64,000 nt of DNA from Cyclobacteriaceae bacterium (GTDB taxonomy: Bacteria > Bacteroidota > Bacteroidia > Cytophagales > Cyclobacteriaceae): contig JAHCHY010000014.1 of NCBI GenBank assembly GCA_026129485.1, forward strand, positions 15,445-79,444. The letters are read 5' to 3'. A program made the translations under genes and the position numbers. Within the stretch, counting starts at the first letter, position 1. Every line of letters begins with the position of its first letter. Below the pieces are notes generated by a model. The model made no database searches. It worked only from the letters and a program-made list of their open reading frames with translations, and was not told where the DNA came from. Shown here one piece after another: positions 3,311 through 22,450 of this stretch.

Positions 3311-4975
3311 ATGAAACTTCAAGACTACATTGTATTTGTTATTTACTTCATTATCGTGGCCGTGTATGGGTACTGGATTTATCATAGAAAAAAGAAAGCT
3401 ACGGCTGATTCCAAGGATTTCTTTTTAGCGGAAGGTTCGCTTACCTGGTGGGCGATCGGGGCTTCGCTGATCGCGTCCAACATCTCGGCCGAGCAGTTTA
3501 TCGGCATGTCGGGCGATGGCTTTAGCATGGGGCTTGCCATTGCCACATACGAGTGGATGGCTGCCGCAACACTTATTGTAGTGGCCGTGTTTTTCCTGCC
3601 GATCTACCTCAAGAATAAAATTTACACCATGCCCCAGTTTCTGCGGCAGCGTTATAATCCCCAGGTAGCTAATATCATGGCTATCTTCTGGCTATCACTC
3701 TACATTATTGTAAACCTTACCTCCATCTTGTTTCTGGGAGCGCTTGCCATCAGCACGGTTTCCGGCATCAGCTTTACTTTCTGCATGTTGTTTTTGGCCG
3801 TGTTTGCCATTCTGATCACACTGGGCGGAATGAAAGTGATTGGTTATACCGATGTGATCCAGGTGTTCTTCCTGATACTGGGCGGGTTGGCAACCACGTA
3901 TCTGGCGCTTAACCTCGTATCGGAACAGTTTGGCACCAGCGGTGTGTGGAACGGGCTTTCCTTGCTTAACAAAATGGCACCCGATCACTTCGACATGGTG
4001 TTCACACAGGACAATCCGCACTTCATCAGCTTGCCGGGGCTCACCATTATGTTAGGCGGTATGTGGATCGTTAACCTCAACTATTGGGGCTGTAATCAAT
4101 ACATTACACAACGTGCGCTGGGTGCAGATTTGAACACCGCCCGCAGCGGTATTTTGTTTGCTGCGTATCTGAAAATGCTGATGCCGATTATCGTTGTATT
4201 GCCCGGTATAGCGGCATACGTGTTATGGAAAAACGGTTTGTTCCAGACCGAGATGTTAAAAGATGGCGAGGTACTGAAAGATAATGCTTACCCGGTATTG
4301 CTTAACCTGTTGCCGGCCGGCTTGAAAGGTTTGTCGTTCGCAGCATTGACAGCCGCGGTAGTAGCCTCGCTGGCGGGTAAAGCCAATAGTATTTCTACCA
4401 TATTCACGCTGGATATCTATAAAAACGCCATCAACAAAACGGCATCTGAGAAAAACCTGGTTTGGGTAGGCCGGATTGCCGTGGTGGTATCGATGGTACT
4501 GGCGCTTATTATCGCTCCATTCCTGGGAATCGACAAGAAAGGCGGTTTTGAATTTATACAGGAATACACGGGCTTCGTTTCGCCCGGTATTTTTGCCATG
4601 TTCATTTTCGGCTTCTTCTGGAAACGGACTACTTCCGGTGCCGCCATGTTTGCCATTATCGGTGGATTTGCCAGCTCGGTGATCTTTAAGTTCCTGCCGG
4701 GCTGGGTCGATCTTTCATTCCTGCAGCCTTTTGGCTTTGCCGTGGTAAGCCCGTCCAGCGGGTTGGTTGAGATCCCGTTCCTCGATCGCATGGGCTTTGT
4801 ATTTATCATTTGTGTAATCGGTATGGTGCTGATCAGCTTAATGGCGCCTCCGCATAAGCGGCCGGCCAACACGCTCGAGGTTGATTATAAAATGTTCCGG
4901 ACATCGCCAGGGTTTACCGTAGGAGCTCTTATAGTTATAATCATGTTGATTATCCTGTATTACACCTTCTGGTAG
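3311..4975 (+). CDS. Sodium:solute (sugar) symporter, SSS family
   Basis: 554 aa, about 14 TM. Motifs SLIASNISAEQFIGMSG and YWGCNQYITQRAL as in vSGLT-like transporters. Confidence 0.9.
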   Translation: MKLQDYIVFVIYFIIVAVYGYWIYHRKKKATADSKDFFLAEGSLTWWAIGASLIASNISAEQFIGMSGDGFSMGLAIATYEWMAAATLIVVAVFFLPIYLKNKIYTMPQFLRQRYNPQVANIMAIFWLSLYIIVNLTSILFLGALAISTVSGISFTFCMLFLAVFAILITLGGMKVIGYTDVIQVFFLILGGLATTYLALNLVSEQFGTSGVWNGLSLLNKMAPDHFDMVFTQDNPHFISLPGLTIMLGGMWIVNLNYWGCNQYITQRALGADLNTARSGILFAAYLKMLMPIIVVLPGIAAYVLWKNGLFQTEMLKDGEVLKDNAYPVLLNLLPAGLKGLSFAALTAAVVASLAGKANSISTIFTLDIYKNAINKTASEKNLVWVGRIAVVVSMVLALIIAPFLGIDKKGGFEFIQEYTGFVSPGIFAMFIFGFFWKRTTSGAAMFAIIGGFASSVIFKFLPGWVDLSFLQPFGFAVVSPSSGLVEIPFLDRMGFVFIICVIGMVLISLMAPPHKRPANTLEVDYKMFRTSPGFTVGALIVIIMLIILYYTFW

Positions 4976-5019
4976 AGTAAGCATGAACTTAAAATAGGTA
5001 GGTTTATAGATTTGGGTTT

Positions 5020-5982
5020 ATGAATCGAATTGACAGACTTACCGCCATACTCATTCAACTGCAGACCAAGCGGGTGGTGAAGGCAGAAGAAATTGCCGAC
5101 CGGTTTGGCATGAGCCTGCGCACCGTGTATCGAGATGTAAAAGCCCTGATGGAAGCCGGTGTACCCATCGGATCGGAAGCCGGCAAGGGGTATTTTATTG
5201 TCGATGGTTTTCATTTGCCCCCGGTAATGTTTACGCAAGACGAAGCTAACTCCATGATACTGGCGGGTAAGCTGGTAGAGAAGATAGCTGATAAATCTGT
5301 GCGCGAAGCGTTTAATTCCGCGCTATATAAAATCAAGTCAGTATTGAGCGATGATGACAAGGACGGGGTTGAAACGCTTGATTCAAACATCCGGGTTTAT
5401 TTCCGCGGTCGTGCCAATAATACCGATCATTCATTTCCCGATCACTTTATGACGGAGATTCAGCGTGCGGTTGCGCGGAAGCAGGTATTGAAGCTCAACT
5501 ATGTAAACCAGGCAGGGGAGGTATCGCAGCGATTGGTAGAGCCGGCCGGTATTTTCTTTTACAGCCTGGCCTGGCACCTGATCGGCTGGTGCCGCCTGCG
5601 CAATGGCTATCGCGATTTCCGGTCAGACCGGATAAAGAACCTGGCCAATACAGGCGAAGAATTCAGTGAACGCAGCAACATATCGCTTAAGGAATATTTC
5701 AAGGCCATGTATGCAGCCAACGAAAACCTTACACCTGCTGTGGTGATTTTCGATAAAAAAGTATTGAATGGCAGATCACTCAGCTCCACCACTACACAAA
5801 CTGACCTGGGCGATCGTATTCGTGCCGAATTTGTCATGGACAGCATTGATTTTATCGCCCGGTGGTTGCTCATGTATGGTAAGGGGGTTGAAATCGAATC
5901 GCCAGATCGCCTGCGCGAACGGGTAGCTGAGCTAACAGAAGAGCTTCATGTACACCATGTGCGGAACAAGGTTAACATCTGA
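5020..5982 (+). CDS. YafY-family HTH-WYL transcriptional regulator
   Basis: N-terminal MNRIDRL..SLRTVYRD..L wHTH, then a WYL domain (WHLIGWCRLRNGYRDFRSDRI) and a C-terminal WCX-like region. Confidence 0.92.
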   Translation: MNRIDRLTAILIQLQTKRVVKAEEIADRFGMSLRTVYRDVKALMEAGVPIGSEAGKGYFIVDGFHLPPVMFTQDEANSMILAGKLVEKIADKSVREAFNSALYKIKSVLSDDDKDGVETLDSNIRVYFRGRANNTDHSFPDHFMTEIQRAVARKQVLKLNYVNQAGEVSQRLVEPAGIFFYSLAWHLIGWCRLRNGYRDFRSDRIKNLANTGEEFSERSNISLKEYFKAMYAANENLTPAVVIFDKKVLNGRSLSSTTTQTDLGDRIRAEFVMDSIDFIARWLLMYGKGVEIESPDRLRERVAELTEELHVHHVRNKVNI

Positions 5983-6007
5983 TCCCTGACTTCCAGCTTT
6001 ACAGCTC

Positions 6008-6079
6008 CTGACATACCATTGTCAGTTGGTTTCAAAAAATTGTGAAAAAAGATTTTTTCTAATGACATAGGGCTGTCAG
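6008..6079. promoter_or_regulatory. Tandem palindromic operators TGACA-N6-TGTCA, likely bound by the adjacent WYL regulator
   Basis: CTGACAtaccatTGTCAG at 6008-6025 and TGACAtagggcTGTCA at 6063-6078, 54 bp apart, between the WYL gene and the GyrI-like gene. Confidence 0.65.
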
Positions 6080-6115
6080 TAGCATGGGGTTGATTCGCAT
6101 AAAAACACAATCGCC

Positions 6116-6580
6116 ATGCAAACATCAACACCTGTTATTAAAACAGTAAAGCCAATCAATTTTTTGTTTTTTCGTACCGAAACTACAGTAGACAAGCTTA
6201 ACACCTTGTTTTGGGTTGCGCCCGAACTATTCCGCGAAGCGGTTTTGCATCGCCTTATGATAACCGGCCCCGTTCACTGGCATTATTTCGGGTTCACCGA
6301 TCCGTCAAAGCCTTTTACGTTAGAGATTTCTTTGCCGGTAAGCGAAGTAATACCGGACTATGATGGCAGGTTTCACTTTAAGCGAACGGATGAATTTAAA
6401 TGTATGTCAGTAATCCATGAAGGTAACTGGCTTGAGATGTCAGGCAGCTATCAAAAGGTAATGCAGCTTGTTGGGGAGCAAAAACTACAGCCGCTGGGTA
6501 TTAACCGCGAGCTGTATGTGAACGTGGACTTCAATTTCCCGGAAGCGAACACCACTGAAATACAATTGGGTATTGTATGA
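6116..6580 (+). CDS. GyrI-like small-molecule-binding domain protein
   Basis: 154 aa. GPVHWHYFG..FTLEISLPV, HEGNW.EMSGSYQK and RELY..TEIQ match the GyrI-like/AraC effector-binding fold. Confidence 0.75.
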   Translation: MQTSTPVIKTVKPINFLFFRTETTVDKLNTLFWVAPELFREAVLHRLMITGPVHWHYFGFTDPSKPFTLEISLPVSEVIPDYDGRFHFKRTDEFKCMSVIHEGNWLEMSGSYQKVMQLVGEQKLQPLGINRELYVNVDFNFPEANTTEIQLGIV

Positions 6581-7441: not shown

Positions 7442-7900
7442 ATGAAGGCAAAAACATCCACACCTAAAAAAGCCGCGAAGAAAACAACAGCCAGAAAATC
7501 GTGGGCCGATAAAATGGAGCAGGATCATTCGGTTGTAAAGAAGCTGGATAAGGACTTTGCCGATATGAAGGCCGGCAGCATGATGTATATCTCCAACCCG
7601 AAAACCGTTGATGCCTACATCCGGAATATTCCGAAAGGCAGGGCGGTCGCGCTTAAAACCATGCGACAGGATCTTGCTCTTGAGCACCGGGCCGATGTCA
7701 CCTGTCCCGTAACCACCGGAATTTTTTTGCGTATCGTGGCAGAAGCGGCACATGAGCAGCTCCGGCAGGGAAAAGCGGTTAGCAAGATCACACCATTCTG
7801 GCGGGTGATGGATGCAAAAATGCCGTTGGCAAAAAAGCTGACTTTTGGAAAAAAGCTGATCCGCGAGCAGCGCAAAAAGGAAAAGCTCGACCTCGCTTGA
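7442..7900 (+). CDS. Basic protein with an MGMT/alkyltransferase-like DNA-binding domain
   Basis: IPKG..T...R..LA helix-turn-helix region, then TPFWRV where MGMT has PCHRV and ATL has PWHRV. Lys-rich N-terminus. Confidence 0.55.
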   Translation: MKAKTSTPKKAAKKTTARKSWADKMEQDHSVVKKLDKDFADMKAGSMMYISNPKTVDAYIRNIPKGRAVALKTMRQDLALEHRADVTCPVTTGIFLRIVAEAAHEQLRQGKAVSKITPFWRVMDAKMPLAKKLTFGKKLIREQRKKEKLDLA

Positions 7901-16752: not shown

Positions 16753-18768
16753 ATGGCGAAAGTCCAGAAAGAAAAATCAGAAGAGTCAAAAGCAAAGGCA
16801 TCCAAGCCGTCCGTTGACGATGCTCCTGTAAAGAAGGCAGTTAAGGGCGCAGCGGCAGAAGAACTCTTCGAAAAAGATGAGCTTACCGAATTCAAGCAGG
16901 CTAAAAAAGCGGAAGAAGAAGAAGGTATAAGCCGCATGATCAAAGACGTAACAGCGCGCAAGGCTGCTACGGAATCCAGCATTTCAACGGAGAACTTTGA
17001 CTGGGATGCTTACGATCGCAAAGGTTTTGGCGAAGGTTATTCCGCAAAAGACCGCGAAGCATTGCTTAAAAAATATGAAGGAACCGTTACCACCATCAAC
17101 GAAAGTGAATTGGTAGTGGGTATTGTGGTGGGCATTAACGACCGCGATGTTATCCTGAACATCGGTTTCAAGTCGGACGGCCTTGTACCGCTGGCAGAAT
17201 TTAAAGACCTGCCTAACCTGAAAATAGGCGATTCGGTTGACCTGTTTATTGAAGAGCGTGAAAACGTAATGGGTCAGCTGGTGCTTAGCCGCAGAAAGGC
17301 CAAGCTGCTGAAAGGCTGGGAAAATGTGCAGAAAGCGCTGGATAACGATTCAGTTATTGAAGGCTTTGTGAAGCGCAGAACCAAAGGTGGCTTGATTGTA
17401 GATGTGTTTGGCATTGAAGCATTCTTGCCGGGTTCGCAAATCGATGTGAAGCCTATTCGCGATTTCGATATCTATGTGAATAAGAATATCGAGGTGAAAG
17501 TGGTGAAAATCAACTACACCAACGATAACGTGGTAGTATCGCACAAAGTGCTGATCGAGAAAGATCTGGAACAGCAAAAAGCGGTAATCCTTACCAACCT
17601 GGAAAAAGGCCAGGTACTGGAAGGTGTGATCAAGAACATGACCAACTTTGGCGTATTTATCGACCTGGGCGGTGTAGATGGCTTGCTGCACATTACCGAT
17701 ATTTCATGGGGCCGTATCAGCCACCCGGAAGAGCTGCTTAAGCTTGACCAGGTAGTGAAGGTGGTTGTGCTTGACTTCGATGAAGACAAGAAGCGGATTT
17801 CGCTGGGTATGAAGCAGCTTACGCCTCATCCGTGGGAATCGCTGCCTGCAGATGTTACCATAGGCTCAAAAGTAAAAGGCAGGATTGTAAACGTGGCTGA
17901 TTACGGAGCATTCCTTGAGCTGCAGCCTGGCGTAGAGGGTCTGATCCACGTAAGTGAAATGAGCTGGAGCCAGCACCTGCGCAATCCGCAGGACTTTATT
18001 AAAGTAGGTGATGAACTGGAGGCCGTAGTGCTGACCATCGATCGCGAAGAGCGTAAGATGTCGCTGGGCATCAAGCAGCTTACGGAAGATCCATGGACGC
18101 GCCAGGATGTGCTGAGCAAATATGCAGTAGGTACACGCCACAAAGGCGTGGTTCGTAACCTGACCAACTTTGGCCTGTTCATTGAGCTGGAAGAAGGAAT
18201 TGACGGATTGGTGCACGTATCTGACTTAAGCTGGACACGCAAGATCAAGCATCCTTCCGAGTTCACTAAAGTAGGCGAAACGCTGGAAGTACAGGTACTG
18301 GAGCTGGATGCCACCAACCGCAGACTGGCATTAAGCCATAAGCACCTGGAAGAAAATCCGTGGGATACTTTCGAAACCATCTTTACTACAGGTTCCGTAC
18401 ACAAGTGTACGATCATCAGCAAGAACGATAAGGGCGCAGTACTGGAGCTGCCTTACGGAATAGAAGGCTTCTGTTCGGCCAAGAACTTAGTTAAGCAAGA
18501 CGAAAGCAAAGCTGAAGTAGGCGAGGCTTACGACTTTAAAGTACTGGAGTTCTCGAAAGAAGAGCGCAGAATTGTATTGAGCCTGAAAGCAACCTGGTCT
18601 ACAGAAGTTGAAAAGGCCGAACAACCTGCTGCCAAGAAGAAGACTGCTCCTAAAGGTAAGAGCATCGATAAGATCAACCAGGAGGCAGAGAAATCGACAC
18701 TGGGTGATATTGAAGCGTTGAGCGCACTGAAAGAAAAGATGAGCGCAGCCAAGAAGCCAAGCGAATAA
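16753..18768 (+). CDS. rpsA: 30S ribosomal protein S1
   Basis: Six S1 repeats (GLIVDVFGIEAFLPGSQID, FGVFIDLGGVDGLLHITD and others) and the Bacteroidota C-terminal STLGD..AL..LK. Confidence 0.97.
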   Translation: MAKVQKEKSEESKAKASKPSVDDAPVKKAVKGAAAEELFEKDELTEFKQAKKAEEEEGISRMIKDVTARKAATESSISTENFDWDAYDRKGFGEGYSAKDREALLKKYEGTVTTINESELVVGIVVGINDRDVILNIGFKSDGLVPLAEFKDLPNLKIGDSVDLFIEERENVMGQLVLSRRKAKLLKGWENVQKALDNDSVIEGFVKRRTKGGLIVDVFGIEAFLPGSQIDVKPIRDFDIYVNKNIEVKVVKINYTNDNVVVSHKVLIEKDLEQQKAVILTNLEKGQVLEGVIKNMTNFGVFIDLGGVDGLLHITDISWGRISHPEELLKLDQVVKVVVLDFDEDKKRISLGMKQLTPHPWESLPADVTIGSKVKGRIVNVADYGAFLELQPGVEGLIHVSEMSWSQHLRNPQDFIKVGDELEAVVLTIDREERKMSLGIKQLTEDPWTRQDVLSKYAVGTRHKGVVRNLTNFGLFIELEEGIDGLVHVSDLSWTRKIKHPSEFTKVGETLEVQVLELDATNRRLALSHKHLEENPWDTFETIFTTGSVHKCTIISKNDKGAVLELPYGIEGFCSAKNLVKQDESKAEVGEAYDFKVLEFSKEERRIVLSLKATWSTEVEKAEQPAAKKKTAPKGKSIDKINQEAEKSTLGDIEALSALKEKMSAAKKPSE

Positions 18769-18799
18769 CCTTAACCGGTTATAGCTGGCATAACAACAG

Positions 18800-18833
18800 G
18801 AAGGTGGCTGCTTAAATAGCCACCTTCTTTTTT
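18800..18833 (+). terminator. Intrinsic terminator of rpsA
   Basis: GAAGGTGGCT/AGCCACCTTC stem followed by TTTTTT. Confidence 0.85.
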
Positions 18834-18879
18834 AAGCGGGTTGTAATACGAAGCGTTTTTTATAGTTTTGTGCTTTACC

Positions 18880-18950
18880 GGTTCCGTGGCCGAGTGGCTA
18901 GGCTGAGCTCTGCAAAAGCTCCTACAGCGGTTCGAATCCGCTCGGAACCT
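18880..18950 (+). tRNA. tRNA-Cys (GCA)
   Basis: Acceptor stem GGTTCCG/CGGAACC, anticodon arm GAGCT-CTGCAAA-AGCTC, T-loop GGTTCGAATCC, U discriminator. CCA is not encoded. Confidence 0.96.
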
Positions 18951-18951
18951 C

Positions 18952-18982
18952 AAACCCTTTCGGTTTCCCGAAAGGGTTTTTT
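18952..18982 (+). terminator. Intrinsic terminator after tRNA-Cys
   Basis: Perfect 12-bp stem AAACCCTTTCGG/CCGAAAGGGTTT plus a T run. Confidence 0.85.
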
Positions 18983-19018
18983 ATTGTGATAGAACTCGGA
19001 TGATATTGGATATAAATC

Positions 19019-19051
19019 TAAAAAAGAAGTCAGGATTGAGAAACCTGACTT
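19019..19051 (-). terminator. Intrinsic terminator for the minus-strand islet genes
   Basis: AAGTCAGG/CCTGACTT stem followed on the minus strand by CTTTTTT. Confidence 0.6.
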
Positions 19052-19140
19052 TAATGATAATCTCAAAATCAGTCGTTTTTTCCGTAACGCATTTCCAATA
19101 ATTTGTCAAACGTCTTTACGTTTTCATTGTCCTTGATTTT

Positions 19141-19602
19141 TTACTCTTTCGCTCTTGTATATATATACCTTGTAGGTGTTGTTATTATAGGCAGAAATTG
19201 TCCTGTTTCTTCATCATACGGAATTTCCCAAGCATCATAATAATAAACTAATTGGTCATTTGAAGTCAGGTTAATCCCCTCATTTGAGTCAATAATATTT
19301 CCGTCTTTAAGAATATATTCTCCATTATATTGACTCCATTTTTCATGACTCACTACGGATTTACAAATCATTTTAGTAGAATCAAAATAATAAGTAGTGC
19401 GAATAAGTTTACCGAAATCGGACATAGTCGCGGTAATGATAATTTCTGACTGACTTGTACAAGCGTTAAGTTGTGCAGATAGGCCATTTACCTTTATCTC
19501 TGTCAATATCCAATGTCCCTCTATTGGGTTATGTTCTTCATTATTAATACAAGATGCTATTATTAACAAAGGCAGTAGAAATATTATAAATTTCTTTTTC
19601 AT
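19141..19602 (-). CDS. Lipocalin-like lipoprotein, AT-rich
   Basis: Lipobox IASC and an IEGHWILTE motif typical of bacterial lipocalin-like domains. Confidence 0.7.
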   Translation of the reverse strand: MKKKFIIFLLPLLIIASCINNEEHNPIEGHWILTEIKVNGLSAQLNACTSQSEIIITATMSDFGKLIRTTYYFDSTKMICKSVVSHEKWSQYNGEYILKDGNIIDSNEGINLTSNDQLVYYYDAWEIPYDEETGQFLPIITTPTRYIYTRAKE

Positions 19603-19614
19603 AATTACTCAATG

Positions 19615-19690
19615 TTTCACTTCCACGCAGGGTCTGCGGAGCGACCCTGCGTTAGTTCGCATGCATTGTATGCAAGACCCTGCTGTGAAA
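19615..19690. repeat. 76-bp REP/MITE-like palindromic element (partial second copy at 21038-21075)
   Basis: TTTCAC..GTGAAA termini, GCAGGGTCT/AGACCCTGC arms and an inner perfect stem ACGCAGGGTC/GACCCTGCGT. The first 39 nt recur at 21038 with 36 matches. Confidence 0.75.
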
Positions 19691-19701
19691 GAGTCTACTC
19701 G

Positions 19702-20909
19702 ATTGTGGCCCGTACTTTTAGTCCCTACTTTTCTCATTACGACTTAATAACTGAACTGTAATTTGTCCACTGTCCATGTGAATTGATAACATGAAGTGAT
19801 TCACAACATTTTTGTTGTTTCTTAAGGCCGGTGTCCAATTGGGCAATTTTTTAATAGCCTTCAATGACTGGTCATGAAAAATTTGATTGTCTGGGAAACT
19901 TGTAAGAGAAGGTCCACTTGGGTCCTCTGTGATTTTAAACTTTCCTGTTTCATCAATCATTATTATAAACATACTTGACCTTAGTTTTTGAGAAGCAATG
20001 TAAGCCTTTGATAATTTGATGTTTTTACGAATCGTACTTGTTAAAGAATCAATTCCACCTGGAAATTCTGCAAGCTTGTCAAGTGGGAATACAGATGAGT
20101 CAACTTTGGGGAGAAATTTAAGATAAGGGTACGCTTCTATTGAGGCGTATTTAGATGCTGACCATTTCTCAAGCTTTTCAAATTTTTTTGTCTCCGGAAG
20201 TATATTCATTGTCGGCCGGCCAATATCTTGAATGCTACCACCACCCCAATAGTATTTACCTCTTATGAATTTGCCATTGTCGTATTCCTCAACACACTCG
20301 AGCTTTTGTTCATGAGTAATACCCGGAATTAAACTTTTTCTATAAGACTTCCATGTCCCATGTCGTAATGTGTCCTTGTACTGCCCGGTTACATTAATTA
20401 TCTCTCTTACTAAATCATTGTAGTATTCAGTTTTCCATTCACCTGTTCCGTTAGTCATTTTTGGGCTTCCGTCTTCTTCATAGTACTCAAGAGCACAAAT
20501 GAAATCTCCATTAAATAATATTTTGTCTTTAATACTCCCATTATCATAATAATTAGTCCATATGCCATGCCTGATATTATTTTCGTATAATCCCTTTGTC
20601 ATTAGGGTTCCATTTGGATAATAGAAATAAAAGGTGTCTACTTTTATATTGGCATTGAACTCACCTTTCATTTGGAGTTTCCCATTCATATAATAGTCTT
20701 TCACTTCTCCATAGTACTGATATTTGTCCGTGGTAATGATTCCTGTTCGATAATATTGTGCGAAATTCTTAGTCGTCAATAGCCACGTGCTGTCGTGATA
20801 TGTAATGGCAATTTTTTGTGAGTAAGTCGTCCCCAAAGTAGTCAAAAGAAGTGCTGTAAGTATAACTTTAGTCATTAGTCAAATTTTCATTAAAAGTATG
20901 CGCCACAAC
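19702..20909 (-). mobile_element. Integron-cassette-like unit (attC-like complementary ends) carrying the MORN/TonB_C gene
   Basis: On the minus strand, the 5' end GTTGTGGCGCATACTTTT (20909-20892) is complementary at 15/18 positions to AAAAGTACGGGCCACAAT (19719-19702), which starts within the stop codon. Confidence 0.5.
19718..20875 (-). CDS. Exported MORN-variant/YwqK-like repeat protein with a TonB C-terminal domain, AT-rich
   Basis: Signal peptide, YY.NG.L..KG.Y repeats, and a C-terminal AEFPGG..IDETG..W.PA..N TonB_C-like domain. Confidence 0.72.
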   Translation of the reverse strand: MTKVILTALLLTTLGTTYSQKIAITYHDSTWLLTTKNFAQYYRTGIITTDKYQYYGEVKDYYMNGKLQMKGEFNANIKVDTFYFYYPNGTLMTKGLYENNIRHGIWTNYYDNGSIKDKILFNGDFICALEYYEEDGSPKMTNGTGEWKTEYYNDLVREIINVTGQYKDTLRHGTWKSYRKSLIPGITHEQKLECVEEYDNGKFIRGKYYWGGGSIQDIGRPTMNILPETKKFEKLEKWSASKYASIEAYPYLKFLPKVDSSVFPLDKLAEFPGGIDSLTSTIRKNIKLSKAYIASQKLRSSMFIIMIDETGKFKITEDPSGPSLTSFPDNQIFHDQSLKAIKKLPNWTPALRNNKNVVNHFMLSIHMDSGQITVQLLSRNEKSRD

Positions 20910-21037
20910 GTCTGGCTATATCCACCTTGTGGCACGTATTTTACCATTGCCTGCTGAGGCAGGTGCATATAGCTGTCTTTAAAGGTAAGTATTATGCACC
21001 TGATCTCAAATTTCTAAAAAATCAAGTGGACTCGAAA

Positions 21038-21075
21038 TTCACTTCCACGCAAGGTCTGCGGAGCGGCCTGCGTTA
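21038..21075. repeat. Second, partial copy of the REP-like hairpin
   Basis: TTCACTTCCACGCAAGGTCTGCGGAGCGGCCTGCGTTA, a direct repeat of 19616-19654. Confidence 0.75.
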
Positions 21076-21126
21076 TCCTCAACTCTCCCGGTTTTTTCAA
21101 AAGAGTTTTTTATTACCTTTAAAAGA

Positions 21127-22242
21127 ATGAAATCGCTATACCTATTATTCATGGGCCTGCTTCTGGCGGCCTGCTCAACAAAAGAAAACAAAACGGATAT
21201 GAGCGCCTCTTCCGGTTGGAGCATTTACCCTCCATTGCATACCCTGGTAGATACGTTAACAAATCAGAACGGCCTGAAAGTAACCATAATGCCTTATGGA
21301 GGTAAGGCGGTCAGCCTTTGGGTTCCGGATCGAAATGGAAATATGGCTGATATTGTGCTTGGTTATGACTCGGCCACTCAATATATAACAGGCAATCCGT
21401 ATTTCGGAGCGCTGATTGGCCGGTATGGAAATCGGATTGGAAAAGGTCAGTTCTCTTTGGATGGTAAAACATATCAACTGGCCACTAACAACGGAGCTAA
21501 TGCGCTGCACGGTGGCCCGGGTGGATTTCATAATGTCATGTGGAGTGTTGAGCGCGCGACCTCTAACAGTATCGTGCTAACCTATACCAGCTCGGACGGT
21601 GAAGAAGGCTATCCCGGTACACTCCAGGTTAAAGTTGTTTACACGCTAACGGATAATAACGAGCTTACAATCGATTATGAGGCCACCACGGATAAAGCCA
21701 CTGTTGTAAACCTTACCCATCACTCCTTCTTTAACCTGGCCGGTGAAGGTGCAGGCGATATCCTGGATCATGAATTACAGATTAATGCCGACCGGTTTAC
21801 CCCGGTAGATGAAGGTCTTATTCCTACTGGCGAACTGAAGCCGGTTGCCGGCACGCCATTCGATTTCAGCAAGCCGACAGCTATTGGTATGCGGATTAAT
21901 GACGATGATGTGCAACTGCAATACGGAAAAGGATATGATCACAACTGGGTGCTCAATCGTAAAGGAGATGGATTAGAGCTGGCAGCCGTTGTTACAGAGC
22001 CTGCATCGGGTCGCGTAATGGAAGTATGGACAACCGAACCCGGTCTCCAGTTTTACTCCGGTAATTTCCTGGATGGAAGCGATGAAGGAAAAGACAGGAA
22101 GAAGTACCCGTTACGTTCTGCGTTTTGCTTAGAGGCACAGCACTTCCCCGATTCCCCCAACAAACCGGAATTTCCATCTACAACATTGAAACCCGGTGAA
22201 GTATATAAACAGAAAACAGTGTACAAGTTTCTGACGCGGTAA
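21127..22242 (+). CDS. galM: Aldose 1-epimerase (galactose mutarotase), lipoprotein
   Basis: Motifs GALIGRYGNRI, LHGG, NLTHHSFFNL, YDHNW, FCLEAQHFPDSPN. Lipobox LAAC. Confidence 0.95.
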   Translation: MKSLYLLFMGLLLAACSTKENKTDMSASSGWSIYPPLHTLVDTLTNQNGLKVTIMPYGGKAVSLWVPDRNGNMADIVLGYDSATQYITGNPYFGALIGRYGNRIGKGQFSLDGKTYQLATNNGANALHGGPGGFHNVMWSVERATSNSIVLTYTSSDGEEGYPGTLQVKVVYTLTDNNELTIDYEATTDKATVVNLTHHSFFNLAGEGAGDILDHELQINADRFTPVDEGLIPTGELKPVAGTPFDFSKPTAIGMRINDDDVQLQYGKGYDHNWVLNRKGDGLELAAVVTEPASGRVMEVWTTEPGLQFYSGNFLDGSDEGKDRKKYPLRSAFCLEAQHFPDSPNKPEFPSTTLKPGEVYKQKTVYKFLTR

Positions 22243-22261: not shown

Positions 22262-22371
22262 TACGCAAAAACACTAAGCTGTCAGTTTGAGCCTGTCGAA
22301 AACTATTTAATTCAGAACCAAAAAAGACTTCGACAAGCTCTGTCTGACATTCGAGGTCGTGTTTTTGCGTA
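22262..22371. repeat. REPIN-like element: two inverted REP copies inside a perfect 13-bp outer inverted repeat
   Basis: TACGCAAAAACAC..GTGTTTTTGCGTA encloses TGTCAGTTTGAGCCTGTCGAA and TTCGACAAGCTCTGTCTGACA. Confidence 0.75.
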
Positions 22372-22408
22372 ACTCCAGATGATGTAACCTGATCCTGGTT
22401 AACAACAG

Positions 22409-22450
22409 TTGAAGTGAAACGCAAGCCTTGCGTTCACTTCAATTTTTTTT
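22409..22450 (+). terminator. Intrinsic terminator between galM and the nos promoter
   Basis: TTGAAGTGAA(A)CGCAA/TTGCGTTCACTTCAA stem followed by a run of T. Confidence 0.7.

Follow-up and report, generated by a model that had tools for sequence, protein, structure and literature searches.

A MORN-repeat gene between tRNA-Cys and galM of a Cyclobacteriaceae bacterium is probably a stranded integron-type cassette

How does a gene whose two ends are complementary to each other come to stand between tRNA-Cys and galM of a Cyclobacteriaceae bacterium, and could it still move from there? The gene encodes a secreted 385-amino-acid (aa) protein with MORN repeats and lies in a 64-kb stretch of contig JAHCHY010000014.1 (GenBank assembly GCA_026129485.1, positions 15,445 to 79,444), the whole of which is referred to as the window. 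A preliminary description, made from the letters of the window, had taken the gene for a captured integron cassette, a solitary unit placed next to tRNA-Cys. Our analysis indicates that this MORN-repeat gene (19718-20875) is very probably an integron-type gene cassette now outside any array, and that the stranded cassette is probably no longer able to move.

The ends of the gene were examined on its own, minus strand. An upstream motif, GTTGTGGCGCATACTTTT, runs from 20909 to 20892, exactly where the preliminary description had put it, except that 16 nucleotides (nt), not 17, separate it from the ATG at 20875. A downstream motif, AAAAGTACGGGCCACAAT, runs from 19719 to 19702, and its first base is the second base of the TAA stop codon. 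As described earlier, this motif begins inside the stop codon and is complementary to the upstream one at 15 of 18 positions; shifting the register by one base raises the number to 16 of 18. To set these values against chance, we scored each gene by the highest 18-mer complementarity found between 45 nt 5' of its start codon and 45 nt around or after its stop codon: the MORN-repeat gene reached 16/18, whereas the 94 other open reading frames (ORFs) of at least 100 aa in the window gave at most 13/18. Clearly, the end complementarity of the gene is far beyond chance. We infer a crossover point at G/TT between 20909 and 20908 (here and below, a slash within a sequence marks a crossover point or junction). 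A third copy of the end motif, AAAATACGTGCCACAA (20942 to 20927), which had been overlooked together with a second, partial copy of a hairpin at 21038-21072, can pair with the upstream motif to give a hairpin whose loop is 12 nt long. The gene is AT-rich, as had been noted (35.6% GC versus 46.2% for the window), and is situated within the lowest-GC stretch of the window. Pfam searches matched its product to MORN_2 (E 5.9e-9) and, over the C-terminal 131 aa, weakly to TonB_C (E 0.049); no record of exactly this protein sequence was found.

Homologs of the protein formed a continuous identity series from 96% to 38%; their sources were metagenomes or Cyclobacteriaceae assemblies built from metagenomes, and their genomic contexts were all different. 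In two metagenome contigs of the Joint Genome Institute (L021 and L022), an intact ORF 95-96% identical to that of the window is found inside a row of same-strand ORFs, which are separated by at least four homologous palindromes of 133-137 nt bounded by ..CAAC and GTTG... These sites share the layout ..GCCACAAC, AAAAAG, TTTCTGCAATGGTGCG, a conserved centre (GTTATCTTCGTTCCACGTTTGGTTTCGTGGGACAGGACG), CGCACCACTGCAGAAA, CTCAAAC and GTTGTGGC.., and fold into an 8-bp R stem, a 4/5-nt internal loop, a 10+7-bp L stem and a three-way terminal loop, with compensatory changes between sites at ten base pairs. An attC site is an imperfect palindrome of about 57-141 nt, in which R'', an unpaired spacer, L'', a variable loop, L', a spacer and R' follow one another. 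Judged from sequence and predicted fold, the array palindromes have the architecture of integron attC sites. In both contigs the MORN unit starts with G/TTGTGGCGCATACTTTTAAAGAAAATTTGACCAATG, ends with TAAAAGTACGCGCCACAAC and is followed by a full attC, so that its two ends are those seen in the window. Its start, GTTGTGGCGCATACTTTTAA, is identical to that of the window and comes after an attC in L021 as in L022, while the upstream neighbours of the unit differ between the two. L021 contains at least three units of one ORF plus one attC.

Further copies of the gene were found in other settings. Contigs from three independent public metagenome runs (X1-X3) were aligned to the window and matched it only over 19703-20911 (about 95% identity); outside this interval the sequence is attC-like on both sides and differs from run to run. 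Both end motifs are kept in L023 and L001 (82-84% homologs), which provide yet other contexts, and L006, with a decayed copy, provides a further one. More distant homologs belong to long same-strand arrays of 11 genes (L028, with sites of an approximately 85-nt type) and 21 genes (L031), with other attC types. The preliminary description had recommended a search for homologs in cassette arrays elsewhere, and L021, L022 and these more distant arrays are what such a search brought to light. A covariance model of attC, R1, was built from four distinct array sites and recovered all of the array sites with 138-153 bits; in L001, L006 and L023 it detected no site of the L021 type, the sites there being of other types or decayed. 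A box-pair scan (AAC...GTT, complementarity of at least 7/8) returned only site 1 of L021 besides ordinary palindromes; arrays, in which R'' and R' belong to different cassettes, call for a less strict criterion. Searches of plasmids gave no match for the attC and none for the MORN-repeat protein. Protein-guided searches returned one irrelevant locus only from genome contigs and 11 mostly short loci from metagenome contigs, in which distant homologs were without the end motifs.

Two of the homologous loci are worth recording in their own right. A 67% homolog (L002-L005 and L011; gene at 5001-6155) is found in many samples in a housekeeping context, kdsB-MORN-ABC transporter, with CACAAC-like boxes at its ends (GGCTTGTGACACAACC upstream and CAGCCACGTACAAC downstream), and may be another old, fixed cassette. 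In L030, R1 matched 7516-7623 (21 bits, E 0.004) upstream of a short run of same-strand genes encoding a metallo-beta-lactamase fold protein, an Mrr-like nuclease, an 86-aa ORF and a MORN homolog; this run may be another small cassette cluster.

A module bounded on both sides by related motifs could also be a non-autonomous transposon, with the gene as a passenger and GTTGTGGC.../...GCCACAAC as 18-nt terminal inverted repeats used by a transposase in trans. Inverted repeats of 15-18 nt do bound the conserved module exactly, and similarity to other contexts stops there on both sides. However, the flanks of the module (CCAGAC/GTTGTGG and CCACAAT/CGAGTA) show no target-site duplication, and no transposase was seen. 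Moreover, structured palindromes belonging to a single family always enclose the module in L021, L022 and X1-X3, and the cassette-specific arms vary from gene to gene, which fits site-specific recombination at a shared site rather than transposition into random targets. We consider the transposon highly improbable.

If the gene is a captured cassette, relatives might have an empty site, and this had also been recommended for checking. We compared the locus with those of the three nearest Cyclobacteriaceae assemblies built from metagenomes (L024, L025 and L026), in which GalM is 77-81% identical to that of the window; no relative had a GalM above 81%. The gene order OmpA-ABC-OEP-rpsA-tRNA-Cys-galM-crp-cytochrome c-fasciclin-nosZ is kept in all three, the gap between rpsA and galM is 336-866 nt as against 2358 nt in the window, and both the MORN gene and a lipocalin-like ORF that accompanies it in the window are absent from the locus. 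The empty site of L024 reads ..CCGAAAGGGTTTTTTATT/ACCTTTAAAGTCATG; because its left half ends at window position 18987 and its right half corresponds to the window from 21115, the insert extends over approximately 18988-21114. It is bounded by the terminator of tRNA-Cys (18952-18987) and a diverged second copy of this terminator (~21081-21114), and its boundaries, 18987/18988 and 21114/21115, are 0.7 and 0.2 kb from the cassette ends. The features of the locus are listed in Table 1. On the occurrence of the same gene with the same ends in the attC-bounded arrays of L021 and L022, the limits of similarity to X1-X3 at both boxes and the empty site, the proposal of a captured cassette held good. 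The unit is not solitary, since the insert also holds an orphan ORF, what is left of a preceding attC, and a hairpin repeat in two copies; and the tRNA-Cys gene, although present as described, is not adjacent to the cassette, being 770 nt away with another ORF in between.

Table 1. Positions of the cassette, its ends and the accompanying features in the window
Feature	Position	Strand	Description
Cassette ORF, 385 aa	19718..20875	-	ORF call; signal peptide, MORN_2 (YwqK-like) repeats, weak TonB_C-like C-terminus
Cassette 5' end	20892..20909	-	R' box GTTGTGGC (20909-20902) and cassette-specific arm GCATACTTTT
Cassette 3' end	19702..19719	-	arm AAAAGTACGG overlapping the stop codon, then R'' box GCCACAAT
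Remnant of preceding attC	20910..20973	-	L''-like arm, loop, L' arm and spacer; no proper R'' box 5' of them
Hairpin element A, 87 nt	19608..19694	-	ACTCTTTCAC...GTGAAACATTGAGT; in place of the attC body of the cassette
Hairpin copy B, partial	21038..21072	-	3' half of A, 94% identity over 31 nt, same orientation
Orphan lipocalin-like lipoprotein ORF, 153 aa	19141..19602	-	in the same insert; own terminator; 31.6% GC, 24% GC at third codon positions
Whole insert, 2.1 kb	18988..21114		relative to the closest relatives; 35.9% GC versus 46.2% for the window
Order of parts in the insert		-	terminator copy; hairpin copy B; unassigned stretch of ~95 nt; attC remnant; MORN cassette; R'' with AAT; hairpin A; lipocalin-like ORF with terminator
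tRNA-Cys (GCA)	18880..18951	+	conserved neighbour; region just downstream variable in relatives too

The gene itself appears to be in use. The ratio of nonsynonymous to synonymous substitution rates (dN/dS) came to 0.19 in the comparison with the array copy and to 0.07 in that with the 84% homolog, which indicates that the MORN-repeat gene is functional, maintained and under purifying selection. Promoters of Bacteroidota have the consensus TAnnTTTG/TTTG (the slash here separating the two elements). A -7 box of the Bacteroidota type lies 7 nt 5' of the ATG, reading AAAATTTG in the window and TAAATTTG in the relative L023, and the GTTG of R' is positioned at about -33. Presumably, to judge from these motifs, the gene is expressed from signals inside its short leader. 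The overlap of the upstream arm with a plausible Bacteroidota promoter region, together with the purifying selection, would suit a vertically inherited gene whose end motifs are ordinary expression signals, namely a promoter region and a terminator-like element, that are complementary by accident. Such an explanation is barely credible, and the data on the empty site and the arrays already contradict it: the gene is missing from the syntenic locus in 3/3 relatives, its composition is foreign, its contexts are completely different at 67-96% identity, and unrelated array genes have the same end architecture.

To see what the cassette has kept of its recombination sites, we examined the sequences beyond both ends. 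The R' box (20909-20902) is intact. Directly upstream of it is the remnant of a preceding attC, composed of an L''-like arm, GCTATATGCACC (20973-20962), a loop that includes the third motif copy, an L' arm, GGTGGATATAGC (20926-20915), and a spacer, CAGAC (20914-20910). Its L'/spacer segment, TGGATATAGCCAGAC, is nearly identical to TGGATAAAGCCAGAC of site 2 in L021. The top match of R1 in the window (20900-20987; 13.8 bits, E 0.012 over 2.3 kb) falls on this segment, directly upstream of the cassette, and R1 found no convincing site elsewhere in the 64 kb. An Rfam scan of 18700-21300 returned the tRNA only, leaving the attC-like sites without any Rfam match.

At the 3' end, the R'' box ends in AAT (19704-19702). 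The box reads AAC in L021, L022, L023 and L001, and AAT only in the window and in the decayed copy of L006, in agreement with the earlier view that this box has decayed from AAC to AAT. Similarity of the window to all array copies breaks off at GCCACAA/T, and the matches of X1-X3 end at exactly that base. Hairpin A, which follows, has a predicted fold of -21 kcal/mol (z = -2.9) and is without GTT; R1 aligns it end to end weakly (8.7 bits, E 0.19), and no copy of it was found in any of the related or array loci examined. Taken together, the stop of similarity, the low score, the lack of GTT and the lack of an array copy indicate that the cassette's own attC was lost or replaced. The preliminary description had the downstream attC interrupted by the hairpin 11 bp after the box; this is too simple, as no array-type L'', L' or R' is left on either side of hairpin A.

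We weighed the alternative that the unit is still a complete cassette, in which hairpin A with GCCACAAT and ATTGAGT would be a divergent, host-specific attC and copy B a second site. The insert would then be a small cluster of two or three attC sites without an integrase, perhaps still open to recombination by an integrase encoded elsewhere in the genome. Hairpin A occupies exactly the place of an attC, immediately behind R''; a box-to-box length of ~105 nt and a nested hairpin are in keeping with an attC; the global alignment by R1 pairs CAAT with ATTG, which would make AAC to AAT and GTT to ATT compensating changes; the arrays vary greatly in attC type; and hairpins A and B, the only two copies in 64 kb, are both within the insert. 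However, 8.7 bits (E 0.19 over 2.3 kb) is less than the score of an intragenic chance match, the near-universal AAC/GTT triplets are absent from hairpin A, and copy B has TTCGAGT instead of R'. In addition, the lipocalin-like ORF that begins 5 nt after hairpin A ends in a plain terminator with no R''-like end, and the hairpin element is present in none of the array loci. A complete cassette is therefore unlikely. Hairpins A and B were also considered as degenerate copies of tRNA-Cys or relatives of the galM terminator, and this was rejected: only short words are in common, and the pattern linking them was made after the fact.

We thus return to an integron-type cassette that has lost its own attC. 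Its home setting would be the cassette arrays of Cyclobacteriaceae-like bacteria, where the unit would extend from G/TTGTGGCGC... to ...GCCACAAC and have an attC of ~115-130 nt behind it. By analogy with known integrons, an integron integrase would excise or insert this unit by recombining folded attC sites at G/TT. The copy in the window arrived within the 2.1-kb AT-rich fragment, which entered the gap between tRNA-Cys and galM immediately behind the tRNA-Cys terminator. Preserved in this fragment are the 5' boundary along with a portion of the preceding attC, the ORF in intact form and, of the cassette's own attC, the first box with its change from AAC to AAT; what followed that box has apparently been lost, an unrelated 87-nt hairpin standing in its place. 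The preliminary description had reported no integrase in view, and we found no Phage_integrase domain in the 20 scanned window ORFs of 245-471 aa. Lacking both a complete attC and a nearby integrase, the cassette would be fixed in place.

Several observations weigh against this interpretation. The junctions of the insert show a diverged duplication of ~34 nt of the tRNA-Cys terminator and not the G/WT expected of a clean insertion by attC x genome recombination. A single event of this kind was rejected as the entry of the whole insert, since it does not agree with the junctions. The 2.1-kb piece may instead have entered by recombination at the terminator or as a multi-unit circle that was integrated, or later decay may be involved. 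Canonical R boxes read RYYYAAC/GTTRRRY (the slash separating the two boxes), and GCCACAAC/GTTGTGGC match this consensus only at AAC/GTT. Extrahelical bases in the L stem mark the recombining strand of attC; in the array folds, by minimum-free-energy prediction alone, there are no clear extrahelical bases and there is one 1x1 A/C mismatch. Near-identical cassettes have different attC bodies in different metagenomes, which is not predicted if an ORF and its own attC travel as one. Finally, no integron integrase, attI or Pc promoter was seen beside any array, and none of the fetched array contigs contained an integrase; these contigs are short or end inside arrays, too short to exclude one. Because none of these elements was seen in the short array contigs, the label 'integron' rests on the architecture of the sites and the behaviour of the cassettes, and we infer on these grounds that the MORN cassette and its arrays belong to the integron proper.

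Integrons have been reported in Bacteroidota (PMC8618304). Isolated cassettes without an integrase (SALIN) and clusters of them (CALIN) are documented and common (PMC8618304; Cury et al. 2016 as cited there), and integrases can insert cassettes at genomic G/WT, outside att sites (Loot et al., bioRxiv 10.1101/2022.09.11.507474). Like a SALIN or CALIN, the window unit is a cassette-type ORF with recognisable boundaries, occupies a core chromosomal region with no integrase nearby, is missing in relatives and has a foreign composition. Unlike them, its own attC is not intact, with only R'' left and ending in AAT, so that IntegronFinder might not call the unit at all, and it came with part of a preceding attC and an extra orphan ORF. 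It also departs from a SALIN generated by attC x attG recombination, in that its upstream neighbour is attC debris and not host DNA, its downstream attC is incomplete, and its junctions show the duplicated tRNA-Cys terminator rather than a clean G/WT. With attC debris and a second ORF alongside, an incomplete attC of its own and a duplicated terminator at the junctions, the unit, which derives from such a cassette, does not qualify as a clean SALIN.

The arrays in L021 and L022 resemble sedentary chromosomal integrons with repeats such as those of Vibrio cholerae. Their sites are ~130 nt long, highly similar within an array and conserved in the centre; their ORFs are short, on the same strand and mostly of unknown function; and the same cassette occurs behind different neighbours. 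They differ in their host (Bacteroidota, Cyclobacteriaceae), in the R boxes GCCACAAC/GTTGTGGC, in an R stem extended to ~18 bp by cassette-specific sequence, in having no evident extrahelical bases and no integrase linked to the arrays, and in the combination of near-identical cassettes with different attC bodies in different metagenomes.

The long ends were not special to the MORN gene. The preliminary description had proposed long ends for this type of cassette, and they are real: all three complete cassettes of L021 (3/3), which carry unrelated genes, have a start complementary to their own end over ~18 nt. The pattern consists of 9-10 bp, 1-2 mismatches and 7-8 bp, the outer part being cassette-specific. 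Apparently, end complementarity of ~18 nt is a feature of every cassette in the L021 array family. It would lengthen the base of the attC stem in a circularised cassette. We know of no earlier description of such long end complementarity in cassettes.

The attC bodies around these cassettes show a different pattern. The cassette copies of X1-X3, L021 and L022, each ~95% identical to the window, have most of their differences from the window in common. Within one metagenome, upstream and downstream sites have the same L-box type, which suggests array-specific homogenisation or replacement of attC bodies. Because the bodies differ around near-identical cassettes, either homogenisation of attC within arrays or exchange at both boxes is needed.

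Group II introns were also encountered in the homologous loci, with 3' ends on the cassette strand that stop exactly at the R' box, in L001 (~2060-2310), L006 (1399-1474, on to 1485) and L028 (~4230-4310). That of L006 is a complete domain V/VI match beside a reverse transcriptase ORF, whereas those of L001 and L028 are remnants; the junctions read ..GACTCGACT/GTGGCGC, /GCGCTC and /GGCAGCC. No group II intron is present in the window. As in the described group IIC-attC introns, the 3' ends in L006, L001 and L028 are at a cassette boundary beside an attC-type hairpin; unlike the described ones, which are on the bottom strand, opposite to the cassette genes (PMC3001079), they are on the cassette strand and end exactly at the GTT of R'.

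The extended stem of ~18 bp, the conservation of the gene module independently of the attC body and the introns at GTT would together suggest that both R boxes take part in an exchange or joining step. This step could be the replacement or homogenisation of attC, or an intron-assisted joining of genes to attC sites. That the Cyclobacteriaceae-type arrays are a variant integron system which uses such a step, and not the canonical single crossover at R', is a tentative idea and on balance a doubtful one.

Other features of the locus are described here for completeness. The lipocalin-like ORF was matched to Lipocalin_4 by Pfam (E 1.7e-4), and among 5.8 billion proteins it had no homolog but itself. 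From the sequences compared, the stretch downstream of tRNA-Cys looks like an insertion hotspot. In L025 (5697-6000) this stretch holds a degenerate tRNA-Cys-like duplicate between two terminator copies, and in L026 (5314-6000) and L027 (1-585) a long repeat, present twice, makes up ~690 nt of it. Just after galM, the window has a 111-nt palindrome (22262-22372) with a perfect 13-bp terminal stem (TACGCAAAAACAC...GTGTTTTTGCGTA; -25.9 kcal/mol, z = -5.7); because it is missing from the same intergenic region in L024, L026 and L027, it looks like an insertion similar to a miniature inverted-repeat transposable element. The terminator after this palindrome (22409-22450; TTGAAGTGAAACGCAAGCCTTGCGTTCACTTCAA plus T8) has the words CTTGCGT and GAAGTGAA in common with hairpins A and B, probably by coincidence.

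Read as above, the locus would be an example of an integron cassette that left its array and became an ordinary chromosomal gene, with its boundaries still readable and the empty site preserved in relatives. It would be so in Bacteroidota, a phylum in which the biology of integrons has hardly been described. The covariance model R1 defines an attC family with which the cognate arrays and their integrase can be sought. The long, cassette-specific complementarity of the ends and the differing attC bodies bear on how cassettes and attC sites are assembled.

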